DNA of 10,511 nt from UHGV virus genome UHGV-0048736; one strand, given 5' to 3'. Made by a program: the position numbers and the translations under genes. The first letter of the stretch is position 1, and every line of letters begins with the position of its first letter. Positions 1 through 10,509 of the stretch are shown here, one piece after another. The notes below the pieces were generated by a model. It worked only from the letters and a program-made list of their open reading frames with translations, searched no databases and was not told the DNA's origin. The stretch comes from a virus.

Positions 1-175
1 TGTCAGTTATCATCTTCGGTTACGGTTATCGGCAGAACGCCCTGCCGCTGACAAGAGCTTATTTGCCTGACCAATTTACTCCACATGATAGATAACTATC
101 ATTTATATCATTTAGTTAATTAGTCTTTATTTTTCATTATGTTGCAAATAACAAGCCTGTCAAAAACAGTGATAT

Positions 176-198
176 TAACTACACCATTAACTACACCG
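176..198. repeat. Left copy of boundary direct repeat (putative att core)
   Basis: TTAACTACACCATTAACTACACCG here versus TTAACTACACCATTGACTACACCG at 10486-10509 (23/24). Each copy is internally a tandem (A/G)ACTACACC duplication. Confidence 0.6.
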
Positions 199-203
199 CT
201 TCA

Positions 204-230
204 CGAACAATATCGAACAACCGCGAACAA
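204..230. repeat. Three CGAACAA direct repeats with exact 10-bp phasing, next to the left att repeat (possible recombinase or accessory-protein binding sites)
   Basis: CGAACAA at 204-210, 214-220 and 224-230, one helical turn apart, starting 6 bp after the att repeat. Confidence 0.5.
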
Positions 231-517
231 AGATCAACACGCTTTAATCATTATCATTTTCCGGCTATCCGTCATGAAGCTAGTGGATGATCTGCGTGGT
301 GATTTCCACCATTCAGAGCAGGGGCGGTCATCATGCCCATGCCATAACAAAAACCCCATATTCGTGGTTTTTCTGTGTTGTGGCTATTCTGCCGTTGCCG
401 TGCTGGTGGATATTTCCGTTATGGGGATCACCATATCGGCATCATGCCCACCAGCCAGCGCAATTTTGCGCTTTTCTTTAAGTTCAGCAAGTTACCGCGC
501 CGGATTACGCCAATGGC

Positions 518-1230: not shown

Positions 1231-1773
1231 TTACTCGCCTTTCTTCTGTAGCAACTTTTCCGGTACGTTTCCGGTTGTTTCTTTCAAGTAATCAGCCAGT
1301 ATCTGTGGGAGGTTGTCGGCAACTCTGGCACTGGCATTACAGGCTTTAACCACTTCCCTTTTAAGCCTATCCAGCATGGCGGGGGTAATCTGTGGGAAGC
1401 TCCTTTGCATAGTAAGCGGGAGGCTGTCCATGATTGATGAAATCTGACTCGCCAGCTTTGAAAGCGCGTACAGGCAAAACTCAGTATCAATCACGTCACC
1501 GCGATCGCGCTCGTTTTTAAGTTCCTGCGCCTCCGCCTGTGCTGTCAGTAATCTGATCCTGACTCGTAAGAGTTCATCATCATCAATATCGCCTTTGTCG
1601 TTTGTAAGCTGGCTAATTGCATTGTTAACCCTATTGTCTATCACGCTGGCAACATCGTAAAACGCCTCACGGCCTTTACGTTCAACGGGAGTCACTCCCC
1701 ACTTGTCGAACGCTGTCGCACTTACACGGCAGCTTTTCGCCATGTTTTTTTTGTTCATCAGGTGCGATTTCAT
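1231..1773 (-). CDS. Terminase small subunit, lambda Nu1-like
   Basis: 180 aa (lambda Nu1 is 181 aa). LLTAQAEAQELKNERDRGDVIDTEFCLYALSKLASQISSIMDSLPLTMQRSFP matches the recalled Nu1 segment LTRAQADAQELKNARDSAEVVETAFCTFVLSRIAGEIASILDGLPLSVQRRFP. N-terminal region (KK..A......W...G.P...GKG.E..YD.A.VI) is consistent with the Nu1 DNA-binding domain. True start may be one of the in-frame ATGs at 1758 or 1743; no clear Shine-Dalgarno at any of them. Confidence 0.85.
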   Translation of the reverse strand: MKSHLMNKKNMAKSCRVSATAFDKWGVTPVERKGREAFYDVASVIDNRVNNAISQLTNDKGDIDDDELLRVRIRLLTAQAEAQELKNERDRGDVIDTEFCLYALSKLASQISSIMDSLPLTMQRSFPQITPAMLDRLKREVVKACNASARVADNLPQILADYLKETTGNVPEKLLQKKGE

Positions 1774-2753: not shown

Positions 2754-3809
2754 TTAAGCAATTTTGACGGTAACAAATTTGCGAATATCTGCCGGAACCG
2801 GCTGCGGTGCGCTGTGCGTCTGCACGTACTCAATCGCCGGATCGCCGTCCTCAATCCAGTTTTTCGGGTAAAACATGTTTTGCGTTGCGCCCGTTCTTAC
2901 TGCGTCCTGATCCATAATCGCACCATAGGCCACCAGCCCTTTATTGTTGGTGTTGCCCAGGACAAGCAAATCAGGCTCAAGGAAATATTTTTCTGTGCCG
3001 TCGCTGTCGGCGTATTTGCCGGAATAGACGATAAGGGCAATATCGCCCAGATAGCCTTTAAAGCTCACCACTTCGCCCAGGTTTTTACAGGCCAGCTCTA
3101 CGGCGGACTCTGAACCACGGGAAAGATCGTACAGCTCACGGAATTTTTTAAAGCTGCGTAACGTGCGCCATACCTCAGCGCCCATAATCATGACGTTTGC
3201 GGGGCAACCAGCCTGATCAGCATAAAGCTCGATGTCATAGATTGGATCGTGTGTTTCCTTATCTGCCTCTGACCACTTTTTACCCGGTCCCTGTCTGGCG
3301 ATGTTTTTACTTGGGATCTTCCAGTCTATTTCATAGCGTTCTATGCCTTCGCCCTCAATGATGTTTTTTCCGGTCGTTATCGCATTCACCGCCAGCCATT
3401 CCACGCGCGCTTTAATGGCGTTTATCTGGCGGCGCATGTTGCCAGTAATCAGGCGCATACGGCGGTAGGTAGGGTCGTTAAGCTGTGCTGGATCTTCTCC
3501 AGCCATGCGCATGATGGTTTTTGTTGGATCGATTTCGTGCTTTGGCTTCATGTAGCCAGGTTTGATTGTGCTGGTTTCGTACCCTTTATCGCGCTGAACC
3601 TGGCTACCCACCATAGGCGAACAAAACGCCGACATGGTGACTTCTTCAATGTCCAGGGTATCCAGCATGATGTTTTGCGTGTTGAATGTCGCCACGTTCG
3701 GGAAAAACAGCGTAGTAAACAGAGGGCTGAATTTAAAATCCGCAATATCCCCGCGATTCAGGTACATGAAAAGCTGGTTAGTGTTAAGTGCCGTTGCTTT
3801 GCCTGCCAT
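2754..3809 (-). CDS. Major capsid protein, lambda gpE-like
   Basis: 351 aa (gpE is 341 aa). FKFSPLFTTLFFP versus gpE FKFDPLFLRLFF; KPGYMKPKHEI versus TPGYVKPKHEV; DPTYRRMRLI versus DPAYRRRRII; YPKNWIEDGDPA versus YPKNWVTTGDPA; C-terminal FVTVKIA versus FVSVQLA. GGGGGTG Shine-Dalgarno. Confidence 0.9.
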   Translation of the reverse strand: MAGKATALNTNQLFMYLNRGDIADFKFSPLFTTLFFPNVATFNTQNIMLDTLDIEEVTMSAFCSPMVGSQVQRDKGYETSTIKPGYMKPKHEIDPTKTIMRMAGEDPAQLNDPTYRRMRLITGNMRRQINAIKARVEWLAVNAITTGKNIIEGEGIERYEIDWKIPSKNIARQGPGKKWSEADKETHDPIYDIELYADQAGCPANVMIMGAEVWRTLRSFKKFRELYDLSRGSESAVELACKNLGEVVSFKGYLGDIALIVYSGKYADSDGTEKYFLEPDLLVLGNTNNKGLVAYGAIMDQDAVRTGATQNMFYPKNWIEDGDPAIEYVQTHSAPQPVPADIRKFVTVKIA

Positions 3810-5395: not shown

Positions 5396-7144
5396 TTATA
5401 AAAACGCGTCGCAATCGTCTGTTGTTATTGCGTTAGTCTGCGTTACTCCTTTAACTTTCCGCGTAATATATTCATGTCCGTAAACTTTCGCGGCTGGCTT
5501 CATAGCCTTGCCAAAGTCATTTACGTTTAGCGGTTTGCTCCTGCCTGCGTACGCCATAAACGCCAGATAGACGCGGTAAAGGCTGTTTCTGGTCGTGTAC
5601 TTCACTGAATCGCCACCGCCGCCCATCATCAGGCCGCGTGCTTCCTCCAGAAAATTCAGGAACTGGCAAAACTCAATAACCGGATCCGTCTGTTGCTTTA
5701 TTGCCAGTGCTTCATCACCGTCACGCTGTTCAATGAGTAAAGCCCGTGCCTTTTCAGGGTCGGCAAAGTTCGCCAGCAAGCGGCGGATAATGACAGGGAT
5801 TTCAGCCGCGATCTTTTCCGGTAGCTCCCTGTCTTTTTCTGCCTCGCTTACGATGTTATCGAACCGGAATATCACCCGACGACGTGCCACACCTCCGGCC
5901 CGTTCGGTGAATATCATCGGATTGTTATTGGTTGCCAGCACCACCGCCCTGATTACCGCCGTAAAACGCTTTTCATATTTCGGGTTAATTTCCACGGGGT
6001 CGCCGCCCGTGATTTTCTTGATGCCCGTTCCTTCGCCTGTATATTTCGGCTGGTCTGCCAGGACGATAAGACGACTCCCGACAACCTGCGCACGCCCACC
6101 AGCATCATCAAGCGATGTCATTTCAGCGCTTACCGTGTTTTGTTTCCCTGCCAGAAGGCTGGCTATGTGTGTGAATGTACTTTTACCGCTCCCGCCGTCT
6201 CCGGTGGCCTCAATAAACATCTGCCAGTCGTACCGGTTCGCCATAATCATGTACAGCGCGGCACATATACGCATCATCTTGCGCGGGTCTTTTCCGGCTG
6301 CGTGCTCAAGCCATTTATGAAAGTTTGGCGCGTTATCGCGGATGTTCTCCCCGGGTGCTGGTGGCGTGTACTCAATGCCGTTGTGCGTGGTGATCCAGTT
6401 CTCCGGCGTGTGCGGGGAAAATTCCCCCGTTTTCAGGTCAAGCGCACCATTGGCGAACGGCAGCAAATCGCCGGACGGCTCGCCCATTGGTTCGGCAATA
6501 ACTTTTAACGCTTCCACGGCGTTATTGATTACGCGCTTGCTGAAAGTGGCCCTGTGCTCTGAATAGATCGCCACCATTTCGCGGCTCAGCTCCATTGTGC
6601 TGACCGGACACCATACCCCGCCGCGCCATACGTGAACGATTTCACTTTCAGGATGCACACAAACGCCATCAAAGCGCTCGGCAAGCAGCTGCGCACGCTC
6701 ACTGTCTGCCATTTGTGCCAGTTGCGTATTTTTCTGCTCCGGCATGGTAAGCCCTGCGGCAATATTTTCACGCTCAGCATTCAGATAGCGCCGCCAGTTT
6801 TCACACTTCTGGACGTGCATTCCTTCGGGGTAAAAATTTGCGTCCTGAATATCTGCCGCCGCCAGCTTCTGACCAATCTTTTTGGTCTCCACCAAATCCA
6901 GTTCTCCGGCCTGGTACAGCCTTACGCGCTTTTTCCCATCCGGAACAATTTTCAGTGCATCAAGTTCGGCAAGCTGATTTGGCCCAAGCCACACAGGCGG
7001 CACATTATCGCCGGATGCGGGGCCATCCTGCTCCTGCCATTGTTTCGCGTGCGACCAGGCATCACTACCCGCGAAAATAATTACCTCTGTGTCTTTGTGT
7101 TTTATTCCGCGTGGCTGTTTTTTTACGTTCGGTGCCAGTTTCAT
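5396..7144 (-). CDS. Replication protein: primase / SF3 (D5- or P4-alpha-type) helicase
   Basis: 582 aa. Walker A EATGDGGSGKSTF, downstream Walker B-like hydrophobic stretch (RLIVLADQP) and C-terminal region typical of P4-family primase/helicase; N-terminal roughly 250 aa is primase-like. ATGA overlap with the upstream 99-aa gene; CAGGGG Shine-Dalgarno. Confidence 0.9.
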   Translation of the reverse strand: MKLAPNVKKQPRGIKHKDTEVIIFAGSDAWSHAKQWQEQDGPASGDNVPPVWLGPNQLAELDALKIVPDGKKRVRLYQAGELDLVETKKIGQKLAAADIQDANFYPEGMHVQKCENWRRYLNAERENIAAGLTMPEQKNTQLAQMADSERAQLLAERFDGVCVHPESEIVHVWRGGVWCPVSTMELSREMVAIYSEHRATFSKRVINNAVEALKVIAEPMGEPSGDLLPFANGALDLKTGEFSPHTPENWITTHNGIEYTPPAPGENIRDNAPNFHKWLEHAAGKDPRKMMRICAALYMIMANRYDWQMFIEATGDGGSGKSTFTHIASLLAGKQNTVSAEMTSLDDAGGRAQVVGSRLIVLADQPKYTGEGTGIKKITGGDPVEINPKYEKRFTAVIRAVVLATNNNPMIFTERAGGVARRRVIFRFDNIVSEAEKDRELPEKIAAEIPVIIRRLLANFADPEKARALLIEQRDGDEALAIKQQTDPVIEFCQFLNFLEEARGLMMGGGGDSVKYTTRNSLYRVYLAFMAYAGRSKPLNVNDFGKAMKPAAKVYGHEYITRKVKGVTQTNAITTDDCDAFL

Positions 7145-7869: not shown

Positions 7870-7965
7870 AGCTACCTCGATACTTTCGCTATCGTTGGTG
7901 GTTAGAAGCCCGGTTAGTGTTAGCGCACTGCCGGGTTTCGTCGTTTCTGCACCTTGCGCCAACAA

Positions 7966-8020
7966 GGTGTTGAACACCAATTTAAACCCAGGTGTTAAAC
8001 ACGTCAAGTGTTGAACACTT
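7966..8020. promoter_or_regulatory. Three operator-like palindromes (GTGTT-N-AACAC) in the divergent control region
   Basis: GGTGTT-G-AACACC (7966-7978), GTGTT-A-AACAC (7992-8002), AAGTGTT-G-AACACTT (8006-8020). A possible sigma70 promoter (TTGAAC -35 inside site 3, CATACT -10) faces the plus-strand regulator gene. Confidence 0.6.
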
Positions 8021-8593: not shown

Positions 8594-8803
8594 TTACGCT
8601 GCCTTACCTGAATTAATGCGATCCCGGCTTTTAACCCATTCCATAACCTCGGACAGCAGCCAACCTACAGAACGCCCACCAAGATTACGGCGAGACGGAA
8701 AGCTCCCTTTTTTCTCCAGTTCGTAGCGTGTAGTGCGACACACTCCAGTTAACTTACGACATTCATCCTCACGGATTACGCGATCTTCATTTATTTCACG
8801 CAT
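8594..8803 (-). CDS. alpA: AlpA-family phage transcriptional regulator
   Basis: 69 aa from the internal ATG at 8803 (the 98-aa ORF in the track starts at a GTG inside AT-rich promoter-like sequence). C-terminal half ...RRNLGGRSVGWLLSEVMEWVKSR fits the AlpA-family pattern as I recall it. Located next to the integrase as in P4-like elements and PICIs. Confidence 0.7.
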   Translation of the reverse strand: MREINEDRVIREDECRKLTGVCRTTRYELEKKGSFPSRRNLGGRSVGWLLSEVMEWVKSRDRINSGKAA

Positions 8804-8926
8804 ACAAAAACCTACATAAAAATTACGTATATAAACTTTTCTCTTAGCTGTAGATATATGAGATCGGATATTACTTAGATTCTTTTTCACCTATTAAATT
8901 AAAAACACAACCATGCTAAAGGCTTT

Positions 8927-8957
8927 GTTCGCTAAGGTTCGTAGAAGCTCGTTAGTG
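8927..8957. repeat. Three tandem 10-11-bp repeats (GTTCGCTAAG / GTTCGTAGAAG / CTCGTTAGTG) in the int-alpA intergenic region
   Basis: Read directly; about 125-155 bp upstream of the alpA start. Confidence 0.35.
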
Positions 8958-9222: not shown

Positions 9223-10461
9223 TCAAGAATTTTGGGGGTAAATTCGCGGGGTCATAACAACGATTTTTTCATCATTGTTCTGGAGAAGCTCGAGACGGTC
9301 TACCCATAGATTAAGAGCATCACGTTTTGCATCAAGGTAGCGGGAGTGGTTATAGACTCGTTGCATCCCTGGCATCTGGTGGGCTGTAAGCTGCTCGACA
9401 ATATGCGGATCCACGCCTAAATCGTTCAGTATGGTTGTAAATGTGTGCCGGATATCGTGTAACGTCCAGGGGGCTTGATTAATTCGTCTGTGCGCTGTTC
9501 TTCCGTACTCTGCTACCGAAGATTGTCCTTTCAGTTCACCAAGCAATAAGCCTGTGTGTCTGTTCTGCTCCACCAGTTGCGTGACGAACGGCAAAATGCT
9601 TTCCGGTATTGGCCTGAATATGGCGACCTTCGTTTTGCTGTGCTCCTTCGGTACTGTCCAGAGCATTTCTTTAAAATCCCACTCCTGCACCTCAGAGCGC
9701 CTTAGCTCAGTGGTACGGCATCCAAAAACAATCAGGAGGCGAATTAGGGCGCTGTAGTATGGCGGGAATATTTTGTCATCCAGGGCGCGGAGTAATTCCC
9801 CAAGCTCCTTATTTGTTAGTACGCGCTCGCTCACTTCTGCTTTTTTTCCCACATCACCGACAACCATATCATCAAGAACGTTGCTGATTGCGTATCGTCG
9901 TTTTCGGCAGTACTTAAGCGCCTGTTTGCATACCTGTAGCAAAAATCCGGCAGATACTGGGCTTCGCTTTGCCATCTGGTCAAAACATGCCAACCAGTGC
10001 CGTAGCTCGCATTTTTCCAACGGCAAAGCGCCAATCTGGCTGATTATGTGTTTATTGATCCGGCTTTTCAGTGATTCGTAGTCAGTGCGCTTTTCCTTTG
10101 CATACGATTCAAGCCAGTAAGTGAGCGCTTCCTTAACTGTCACGGGGGCTAACGCATCCTGTACAGCACGATTAAGCTCATAGCGCGGATTTTTCCCCTC
10201 AGCCAGCCAGGCGCGACACTGTGCTGCTTTTTCCCTGGCTGCTTTCAGGCTCAGATCGGGATAATTGCCCAGTCTCAGACGTTCCGGTGATACCTGCCTA
10301 CCAGTTCCGGCCCTGTAAGTGAAATACCAGGTTAACAGGCCGCTGGTGGAATGTCTTACGCTAAGATTGCCACCGTCATTAAAAAAGGCGTTTTTTGTGG
10401 TTGGTGATCCGCTTAATTTTCGTAAAAGAGTGTCGCTAAGTCTATGAATTGCGCTGCTCAT
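9223..10461 (-). CDS. int: Tyrosine site-specific integrase, P4-type
   Basis: 412 aa. C-terminal catalytic region with HDIRHT (His-x-x-Arg) and a downstream tyrosine (RVYNHSRYL); N-terminal region typical of the P4-integrase arm-binding domain. Start codon 25 nt from the right att repeat. Confidence 0.93.
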   Translation of the reverse strand: MSSAIHRLSDTLLRKLSGSPTTKNAFFNDGGNLSVRHSTSGLLTWYFTYRAGTGRQVSPERLRLGNYPDLSLKAAREKAAQCRAWLAEGKNPRYELNRAVQDALAPVTVKEALTYWLESYAKEKRTDYESLKSRINKHIISQIGALPLEKCELRHWLACFDQMAKRSPVSAGFLLQVCKQALKYCRKRRYAISNVLDDMVVGDVGKKAEVSERVLTNKELGELLRALDDKIFPPYYSALIRLLIVFGCRTTELRRSEVQEWDFKEMLWTVPKEHSKTKVAIFRPIPESILPFVTQLVEQNRHTGLLLGELKGQSSVAEYGRTAHRRINQAPWTLHDIRHTFTTILNDLGVDPHIVEQLTAHQMPGMQRVYNHSRYLDAKRDALNLWVDRLELLQNNDEKIVVMTPRIYPQNS

Positions 10462-10485
10462 GTTTCGCGTTTCCGGTCATCAAAA

Positions 10486-10509
10486 TTAACTACACCATTG
10501 ACTACACCG
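10486..10509. repeat. Right copy of boundary direct repeat (putative att core)
   Basis: TTAACTACACCATTGACTACACCG, 23/24 identical to 176-198. Confidence 0.6.

Follow-up and report, generated by a model that had tools for sequence, protein, structure and literature searches.

Candidate integrase arm-type sites and AlpA operators in the attachment region of the phage-inducible chromosomal island EcCIIHE3034

The element, its genes and its repeats

The window analysed here, a stretch of 10,511 nucleotides from UHGV virus genome UHGV-0048736, is 100% identical to the reverse strand of E. coli IHE3034 (NC_017628.1, 920406-930916) and represents a nearly complete copy of EcCIIHE3034, a known phage-inducible chromosomal island (PICI). 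Its first base directly follows the clpS start codon. EcCIIHE3034 was published as a 10.5-kb element located between cspD and clpS (NC_017628.1 920272-930825), with ATGATAGTTAT as its att core (PMC6092414 Table S1), and is entered as clpS_cspD.EcCIIHE3034 in the supplement of PMC10111431. As these published coordinates correspond to positions 92..10645 of the window, the element extends 134 bp past the window on its int side. All element genes are on the minus strand, and the unidirectional int-alpA-primase order, the packaging/interference genes without a full virion gene set, and the size of 10.55 kb are as expected of a Gram-negative PICI. Transfer at low frequency was reported for IHE3034 RS04635-RS04640::cat (PMC6092414 Table 1). 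When the Int protein was used for a search of genome contigs, only two matches were obtained, both unrelated (25% identity). The element, its att core, and its insertion site are already published: the DNA, the att, and the int-alpA-primase-capsid-terS order are those of Fillol-Salom et al. 2018 (PMC6092414), although the putative arm sites described below are not annotated there. The main features, in window coordinates, are as follows.

85..106: true clpS-side junction ATGATAgATAACTATCATtTAT, with the crossover core ATAACTATCAT at 92-102
107..173: AT-rich spacer of 67 bp separating the core from the doubled 12-mer (P' arm)
174..197, plus strand: doubled 12-mer, ATTAACTACACC twice (reverse complement GGTGTAGTTAAT twice), candidate Int arm-type pair of the int-distal (P') arm
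204..240, plus strand: array of three CGAACAA and one TCAACAC, candidate operators of a recombination directionality factor (RDF), AlpA
1773..1231, minus strand: Nu1-like TerS
minus strand: decoration protein gene
3809..2754, minus strand: gpE-like capsid protein
minus strand: SSB gene
7144..5396, minus strand: D5_N-type primase
minus strand: icd-like gene and DUF4222 gene
8594..8803, minus strand: alpA, 69 aa, Phage_AlpA/Vis-type winged HTH (Pfam PF05930, E=3.8e-16; RefSeq annotation)
8925..8951, minus strand: third phased array, inverted, between int and alpA, upstream of the alpA ATG by 122-148 bp
9223..10461, minus strand: int, encoding a 412-aa tyrosine integrase with an arm-DNA-binding domain at its N-terminus (Pfam: Arm-DNA-bind_3, E=1.6e-16; Phage_integrase, E=1.5e-18)
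10485..10508, plus strand: second doubled 12-mer, ATTAACTACACC ATTGACTACACC, int-proximal (P) arm

Two types of repeats stand out near the ends of the window, and both are real and non-random. The first is a 25-bp direct repeat, ATTAACTACACCATTAACTACACCG, found at 174-198 and again at 10485-10509 with 1 mismatch. The second consists of CGAACAA heptamers at 204-210, 214-220, and 224-230, i.e., with a period of exactly 10 bp, followed in the same phase by a degenerate fourth copy, TCAACAC, at 234-240. This phased CGAACAA triple was recovered in 0 of 200 shuffles, and the 204-230 array was the sole match when the window was scanned for three phased copies of GAAC. The original prediction had already recognized the direct repeat, given there as 24 bp, and the three CGAACAA copies at 10-bp spacing, and both stand; the unit of the repeat, however, is not ACTACACC duplicated contiguously but a 12-mer, ATTAACTACACC, present twice. 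From the repeat to the first CGAACAA, the distance is 5 bp (199-203), previously given as 6 bp.

Crossover core and insertion site

The duplicated core of the element is ATAACTATCAT, at 92-102 of the window, which matches the published EcCIIHE3034 att. Its partner falls outside the window, ~125 bp from the last base, and would be numbered 10635-10645 (junction 10628-10649); the right junction reads ATGATAaATAACTATCATcTAT. Empty alleles (L002 and L003) include ATGATAGATAACTATCATCTAT once and no 25-mer, and the empty clpS-yljB-cspD alleles of ATCC 11775 and of a K-12-like strain read ...ccacATGATAGATAACTATCATCTATcgttagc.... The corresponding attB, ATGATAgATAACTATCATcTAT, is located upstream of clpS and overlaps the yljB TGA stop codon, and its core region is a perfect palindrome (ATGATAG-ATAA-CTATCAT). 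Two polymorphisms, g/a and c/t, are combined as g..c in attB, a..t in attP, g..t at the clpS-side junction, and a..c at the far junction, and this sorting places the exchange inside ATAACTATCAT. The 25-mer at 174 is thus found 72 bp inside the true left junction. The original prediction, which took this sequence for the boundary repeat of the element, had proposed an empty-site comparison as a check, with boundaries elsewhere counting against it; that comparison does locate the boundaries elsewhere, with the 25-mer absent from the empty alleles and the true core at 92-102 and beyond the window end, and the label has to be abandoned. The proposal of a non-tRNA integration site was right, albeit for the wrong sequence, since the real and already published target is a non-tRNA site between clpS and yljB/cspD. 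The lack of tRNA 3'-end features noted at the time also holds: ARAGORN detected 0 tRNA or tmRNA genes in the window, and neither the window nor the empty site matched any Rfam family. An RNA gene at attB was rejected as a candidate based on these same searches.

Circular forms provide a direct view of the attP junction. In pZ1323HEC0475-3, a circular 10,790-bp sister PICI with a >99% identical Int and an identical AlpA protein, a single core, ATGATAaATAACTATCATtTAT, is followed outward by 67 bp, the 25-mer, and CGAACAA x3. On the int side, the int ATG is followed by 24 bp, the 25-mer, CGAACAA x2 and AAACAA, CGAACAC x2, and the core. An IMG/VR contig encoding a 100% identical Int (L015) displays the same attP junction, with one core, both 25-mers, and the heptamer arrays, and the same layout is found in a circular contig of the 042 type (L079, 119-bp terminal overlap). 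The P arm of EcCIIHE3034 past the window end likewise includes CGAACAA x2 and AAACAA, then CGAACAC x2, then the core, so that two more heptamers adjoin the core on the int side.

These comparisons already refute the reading in which the two 25-bp copies are attL and attR, with the repeat as the att core duplicated on insertion of a 10.3-kb element, and we assign it almost no remaining probability. This reading has the merit that the repeat is the longest direct repeat visible in the window and brackets int through terS, and that the same 26-mer is given as the “att core” of EcCIDI14 (PMC6092414 Table S1). The 25-mer is missing from empty sites, however, while both copies are kept in attP junctions, and the product allele of a 25-mer x 25-mer recombination was identified in 0 of 5,426 complete E. 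coli genomes, nearly all of which matched the constructed allele in two pieces only (657 bp span vs 889 bp). The EcCIDI14 entry does not rescue it: the true junction of that element reads ..CGCTGTGA|GTTGATG.., and because intact ISEc45 does not include the 26-mer, the published “att core” is a mis-assignment of the same kind. For the yejM PICIs, too, the att cores given are doubled motifs. We regard it as virtually certain that crossover takes place elsewhere than in the 25-mer.

Doubled 12-mers and the integrase arm domain

The function of the 25-mer was addressed by comparison with EcCICFT073 (roxA-phoQ, core GGACATATTT), EcCI042 (tqsA, core ATAACAGCA), and EcCIDI14, which is inserted inside the ISEc45 transposase gene. 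In these PICIs, the doublet GGTGTAGTTAAT x2 is found 22-24 bp upstream of the int start and again near the far end, with a variant, GGTGTAGTCACT x2, in EcCI042. In EcCIIHE3034, 24 bp separate the P-arm doublet from the int ATG downstream of it, and the doubled 12-mers are centred ~89 bp (P') and ~143 bp (P) from the core. Across the clpS-cspD, roxA-phoQ, and tqsA attPs, doublet centres fall at -88.5 to -91 and +142 to +144.5 relative to the core centre, and the doublet-doublet distance is 232-233 bp in all four core classes, including the ISEc45 one (EcCIDI14). The circular contig L079 is among the attPs measured in this way. Such a fixed geometry around interchangeable cores is a signature of the arm-type sites of a heterobivalent tyrosine integrase. 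The N-terminal domain of Int is itself weakly similar to the N-domains of CP4-like integrases (3jtz, 3rmp, and 3ju0).

We then evaluated covariation between the 12-mers and the integrase across the reference elements and 80 IMG/VR loci, of which ~25 were informative as most of these loci begin exactly at the int ATG and thus come without a P arm. Integrases with the arm domain NDGGNLSVRHST(S/N)GLL (β-sheet SVRHST) were always associated with GGTGTAGT(T/C)AAT in both arms, and those with SDGGNLSVKYLTSGKL (β-sheet SVKYLT) with GGTGTAGTCA(C/T)T in both arms, the exception being one GGTGTAGTTATT half-site (L091). An identical AlpA variant, LTGLSRTCRYRLEKAG, was present with both 12-mer types. When the CFT073 and 042 elements are compared, the 60 nt located upstream of the P-arm doublet show no difference, and within the doublet the same two positions differ in each 12-mer. 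Based on an alignment to 3jtz, the five arm-domain substitutions appear to map to β1-turn-β2. The 12-mer variant thus tracks the Int arm β-sheet and not AlpA, which makes an Int arm-type site the most likely identity for the 12-mer, and we consider the 25-mer to be a probable, if still putative, Int arm-type site on these sequence comparisons. Part of this covariation could reflect physical linkage, since attP and int are directly adjacent once the element is circular.

As arm-type sites, the four 12-bp half-sites, one doublet per attP arm, would most likely be bound by the N-terminal domains of an Int tetramer, as in lambda- and P2-type intasomes, with the core-binding and catalytic domains of Int acting at the palindromic core (ATGATAG-ATAA-CTATCAT in attB). 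As the int-proximal doublet is only 24 bp from the int ATG, its occupancy may also allow Int to regulate its own expression. A promoter scan predicted no sigma-70-like promoter in the P arm. One IHF-like match, TATCATTTAGTTA at 106-118 with 1 mismatch to the consensus, was dropped from consideration as it is not conserved in the sister element pZ1323HEC0475-3.

A similar arrangement was previously described for HE-PICIs, in which a doubled motif, tgTGTATTGCantgTGTATTGCa with a TGTATTGC core, is found at -81/+132 in attP (PMC10111431, “Attachment sites”). This motif was proposed to bind either Int arm domains or AlpA, and was reported as absent from other PICIs (PMC10111431). The doublets studied here share with it a tandem organization with a 12-bp period, two co-oriented copies, and fixed but unequal distances to the crossover. 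They differ in position (~-89/+143), in sequence (GGTGTAGTTAAT), in spacing (232-233 bp vs ~213 bp), and in the phased heptamer array that adjoins each doublet. New here are the putative identification of the 25-mer, for this family of PICIs, as a doublet of arm sites, the 232-233-bp geometry maintained with four different core specificities, the covariation between Int arm and 12-mer, and the recognition that the EcCIDI14 “att core” of the published table is this same 26-mer. Arm and core specificity of these PICI integrases would then seem to evolve separately.

Heptamer arrays, AlpA and the organization of attP

In every related PICI examined, 3-4 heptamers (TTGTTCG in PICI orientation) are located directly upstream of each doublet in an exact 10-bp phase, and two more adjoin the core on its int side. 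Additional phased copies occur between int and alpA: CFT073-type PICIs include ~6 GAACAA-like copies in this intergenic region, in L019 CGAAC is retained there at a 10-bp phase although its surroundings have diverged, and the 8925-8951 array of EcCIIHE3034 reads, on the plus strand, TTGTTCG n3 AGGTTCG n3 AAGCTCG, with one of the three copies exact. This conservation of number, phase, and position, in both arms and with four cores, supports the heptamers as candidate accessory recombination sites. The original prediction had suggested as much, and this part of it is retained, with the qualification that the 25-mer is a better candidate than the heptamers for an Int arm-type site.

Candidate ligands for such repeats include RDFs, which bind head-to-tail on tandem repeats one helical turn apart, with at least 3 operators required in the case of Apl (PMC7498355). 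Two features expected of RDF operators are found here, namely at least 3 phased tandem direct repeats and an RDF-family protein encoded by the same element (AlpA, PF05930). For dual-purpose RDFs such as Apl, Cox, and P4 Vis, promoters and att are bound through the same sites (PMC7498355). AlpA of EcCICFT073 activates the promoter of its own gene, and int-dependent excision and replication follow when it is overexpressed, while Pint activity is unchanged by AlpA (PMC6092414). We found no defined AlpA or Vis binding motif in the literature for comparison.

AlpA variants and heptamers fall into two matching classes. Class-1 AlpA (..VCRTTRYELEKKG..) pairs with nnGTTCG heptamers, and class-2 AlpA (..LSRSCRYRLEKAG.., ~60% identical) with TTGTnnC, in the arms as well as in the int-alpA array, and the two classes share the same Int arm β-sheet. 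The AlpA class is nevertheless confounded with the Int/core class, as every class-1 AlpA that comes with TTGTTCG arrays is found at clpS-cspD. No pairing of class-1 AlpA with another Int of the CFT073/042/IHE3034 family was identified, and all instances were at clpS-cspD except for a locus in strain A41 (L096). This locus encodes a near-identical class-1 AlpA along with an unrelated Int and its own Xis-like HTH, and no GAAC arrays were detected in the 7 kb examined. With an unrelated Int and a separate Xis-like gene, this locus leaves the test of the AlpA-heptamer association confounded. Overall, we estimate the chances that AlpA binds the heptamers, making them candidate RDF operators, as slightly below even, and a role of the heptamers in directionality is likewise putative. 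AlpA, as a candidate small DNA-bending RDF, would polymerise head-to-tail on the heptamers and bend the arm, which may promote or impede the loading of Int onto the neighbouring 12-mers, much as lambda Xis does beside P2. The array upstream of alpA could serve AlpA autoactivation.

The main rival is that the heptamers are extra, weaker Int arm-type sites, which would give each arm a run of 5-7 Int sites in a layout that can be likened to L5 or to the lambda P'1-3 sites, with AlpA playing no part at att. The heptamers do resemble the 12-mer core (GTGTAGT vs TTGTACG, TTGTAGC, and GTGTTCG) and continue the same run, and their arrays are found only with this Int family, with none in L096 and ATCC25922, where Int is unrelated. 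The transcription results also fit: four heptamers are found just upstream of int in EcCICFT073, yet AlpA was reported without effect on Pint (PMC6092414). Conversely, the heptamers are class-specific (..TCG vs TTGT..C) despite an identical Int arm β-sheet, a change in the Int arm domain (042 type) is accompanied by altered 12-mers but unaltered heptamers, and one of the arrays is upstream of alpA, far from the core. On balance, we view this explanation as unlikely, though still to be taken seriously.

Many host regulators recognize direct repeats with a 10-11 bp period, and a host protein, e.g., a winged-helix response regulator or a nucleoid protein, might bind the heptamers instead. The class-1 AlpA of L096, which occurs without such arrays, would be in line with this minor rival. 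Variation of the heptamer sequence among PICI classes within one host species, along with the positional association of the arrays with the Int doublets, makes it improbable, and we know of no E. coli regulator consensus recognizable in the heptamer. A swap of the two roles, with AlpA on the doubled 12-mers and Int on the heptamers, is marginally less probable again: both Int arm domains and AlpA are named for the analogous HE-PICI motif in PMC10111431, but here a single AlpA variant is found alongside either type of 12-mer, and it is the Int arm β-sheet that the 12-mer type follows. Finally, a nested or tandem history, in which a 10.3-kb element inserted via the 25-mer into a 232-bp remnant of an older element at attB, was rejected and has hardly any probability left: the CGAACAA repeats beyond the right-hand 25-mer do look remnant-like at first sight, but no remnant-only genome was found in the genome search, attP junctions hold the whole 232-bp unit, and the same geometry is observed in PICIs at three other sites.

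Taken together, our preferred model, in which the PICI recombines at ATAACTATCAT, the 12-mers are Int arm sites, and the heptamers are RDF (AlpA) operators, has a probability of roughly 60%. The attP architecture as such is ordinary for a tyrosine integrase, being the classical one of lambda-, P2-, and P4-type integrases, in which a palindromic core is combined with doublets of arm sites and with accessory repeats in phase, and established tyrosine-recombinase biology is not contradicted by any of these results. The attPs of P2 and 186 combine Int arm-site doublets with Cox or Apl boxes, and in the P arm of lambda, P2 is next to X1-X1.5-X2. As in these phages, EcCIIHE3034 encodes a heterobivalent tyrosine integrase with putative tandem arm-site pairs in both arms, and candidate RDF repeats one helical turn apart adjoin a putative Int arm site. 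The putative RDF may also regulate transcription through similar sites at a promoter, as dual-purpose RDFs do (PMC7498355). Unlike in these phages, phased arrays are found in both arms as well as beside the core, and the candidate RDF is an AlpA/Vis-family activator instead of Cox or Apl. The integrase domain layout is P4-type and, as in P4, is associated with an AlpA-family protein, whereas the P4 target is a tRNA-Leu gene and the EcCIIHE3034 target is a non-tRNA site. P4 Vis both regulates transcription and promotes excision (PMC6092414 discussion; PMC7498355), while the role reported for PICI AlpA is to activate the PICI cycle, not that of an excisionase.

A broader and more tentative reading, whose parts we consider jointly as possible but rather doubtful, is that E. 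coli PICIs with an Int of the CFT073/042/IHE3034 family share a fixed attP design, with two composite modules 232-233 bp apart and interchangeable cores. Each module would consist of 3-4 AlpA operators (10-bp phase) followed by two Int arm sites (12-bp phase), and a third AlpA operator array would be located at the alpA promoter. If this design holds, AlpA would be the missing RDF of Gram-negative PICIs, and would couple helper-induced autoactivation directly to excision. Candidate probes for the control of excision in Gram-negative PICIs would be 174-197 for Int and 204-240 along with 8925-8951 for AlpA. In automated island prediction, taking the longest terminal direct repeat as the limit will cut ~230 bp off the functional attP.

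Published attachment cores and doubled arm motifs

The published "att core" of EcCIDI14, an element inserted within the ISEc45 transposase gene, CGGTGTAGTTAATGGTGTAGTTAATT, is an arm-site doublet, that is, the doubled 12-mer proposed as a pair of integrase arm-type sites (L008, 3547-3573 and 14163-14189). The intact copy of ISEc45 is without CGGTGTAGTTAATGGTGTAGTTAATT (L008 vs L094), and the real junction of the element reads ..CGCTGTGA|GTTGATG... Likewise, the core listed for the yejM PICI, EcCIATCC25922, is a doubled arm motif (TTTGTAGTTATACG twice; L009, 1543-1836 and ~13007-13160), two further inverted copies of which lie in the int-proximal (P) arm. This element adjoins a tRNA-Pro and carries at its far end a damaged tRNA 3' fragment, CTCTCGTGGACCAAA. 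The att listed for NmCIFF6, TTTGGTAACACGTTTAGTAACAC, appears to be another motif of this type.

The clpS-yljB insertion site

The stop codon (TGA) of the 24-aa gene yljB falls partly within the att core, which is at 92-102 in the window; in the empty allele L002 the site is at 685-706. The site lies on the upstream side of clpS, only about 85-105 bp from its ATG, and integration therefore cuts clpS off from whatever sequence is upstream of it. The IHE3034 annotation marks clpA as frameshifted, and a type I-F CRISPR-cas locus lies directly beyond this gene (L001, 2366-4649 and 1-2153). The metagenome contig L015 (IMGVR_UViG_3300019373_000108) begins with an attP junction (1-280) and ends with an element-chromosome junction into clpS (10474-10780); it is probably a mixed assembly, built partly from integrated copies and partly from molecules that were excised or concatemeric.

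Candidate cos and regulatory sequences

Further features of the window are as follows:

1025-1080 and 1878-1933, copies in opposite orientation: inverted repeat, 56 nt, 89% complementary
~7880-7925, directly upstream of the icd-like gene: hairpin GCCCGGCAGTGCGCTAACACTAACCGGGCTTCT
~7950-8010, intergenic region separating the icd-like gene from ylcI/ynfO: operator-like palindromes GTGTTCAACAC (two copies) and GTGTTTAACAC

The inverted repeat brackets a Nu1-like terS (1231-1773), and its arms, GGGCGGCGACCTCGCGG...TATTTATGA, look like lambda-type cos sites. The palindromes enclose a TTGACG box, and a different pair (GTGGGCCACAC, two copies) occupies the equivalent position in the roxA-phoQ element EcCICFT073, which suggests a dimeric, element-specific regulator separate from the heptamer system of CGAACAA repeats. 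The hairpin, for which Rfam returned no family match, is conserved in all five aligned PICIs, the two strands of its stem both having changed, and may act as a terminator or as a regulatory RNA.

A PICI-like element of E. coli A41

In E. coli A41, nfeF adjoins a PICI-like element (L096; NZ_CP028735.1, 4376741-4383928) in which a class-1-like AlpA occurs together with an unrelated integrase of 473 aa, and a gene of its own encodes an excisionase-like HTH protein. The region upstream of int in this element carries different repeats, namely GATACTT.. and GGTATCC palindromes.
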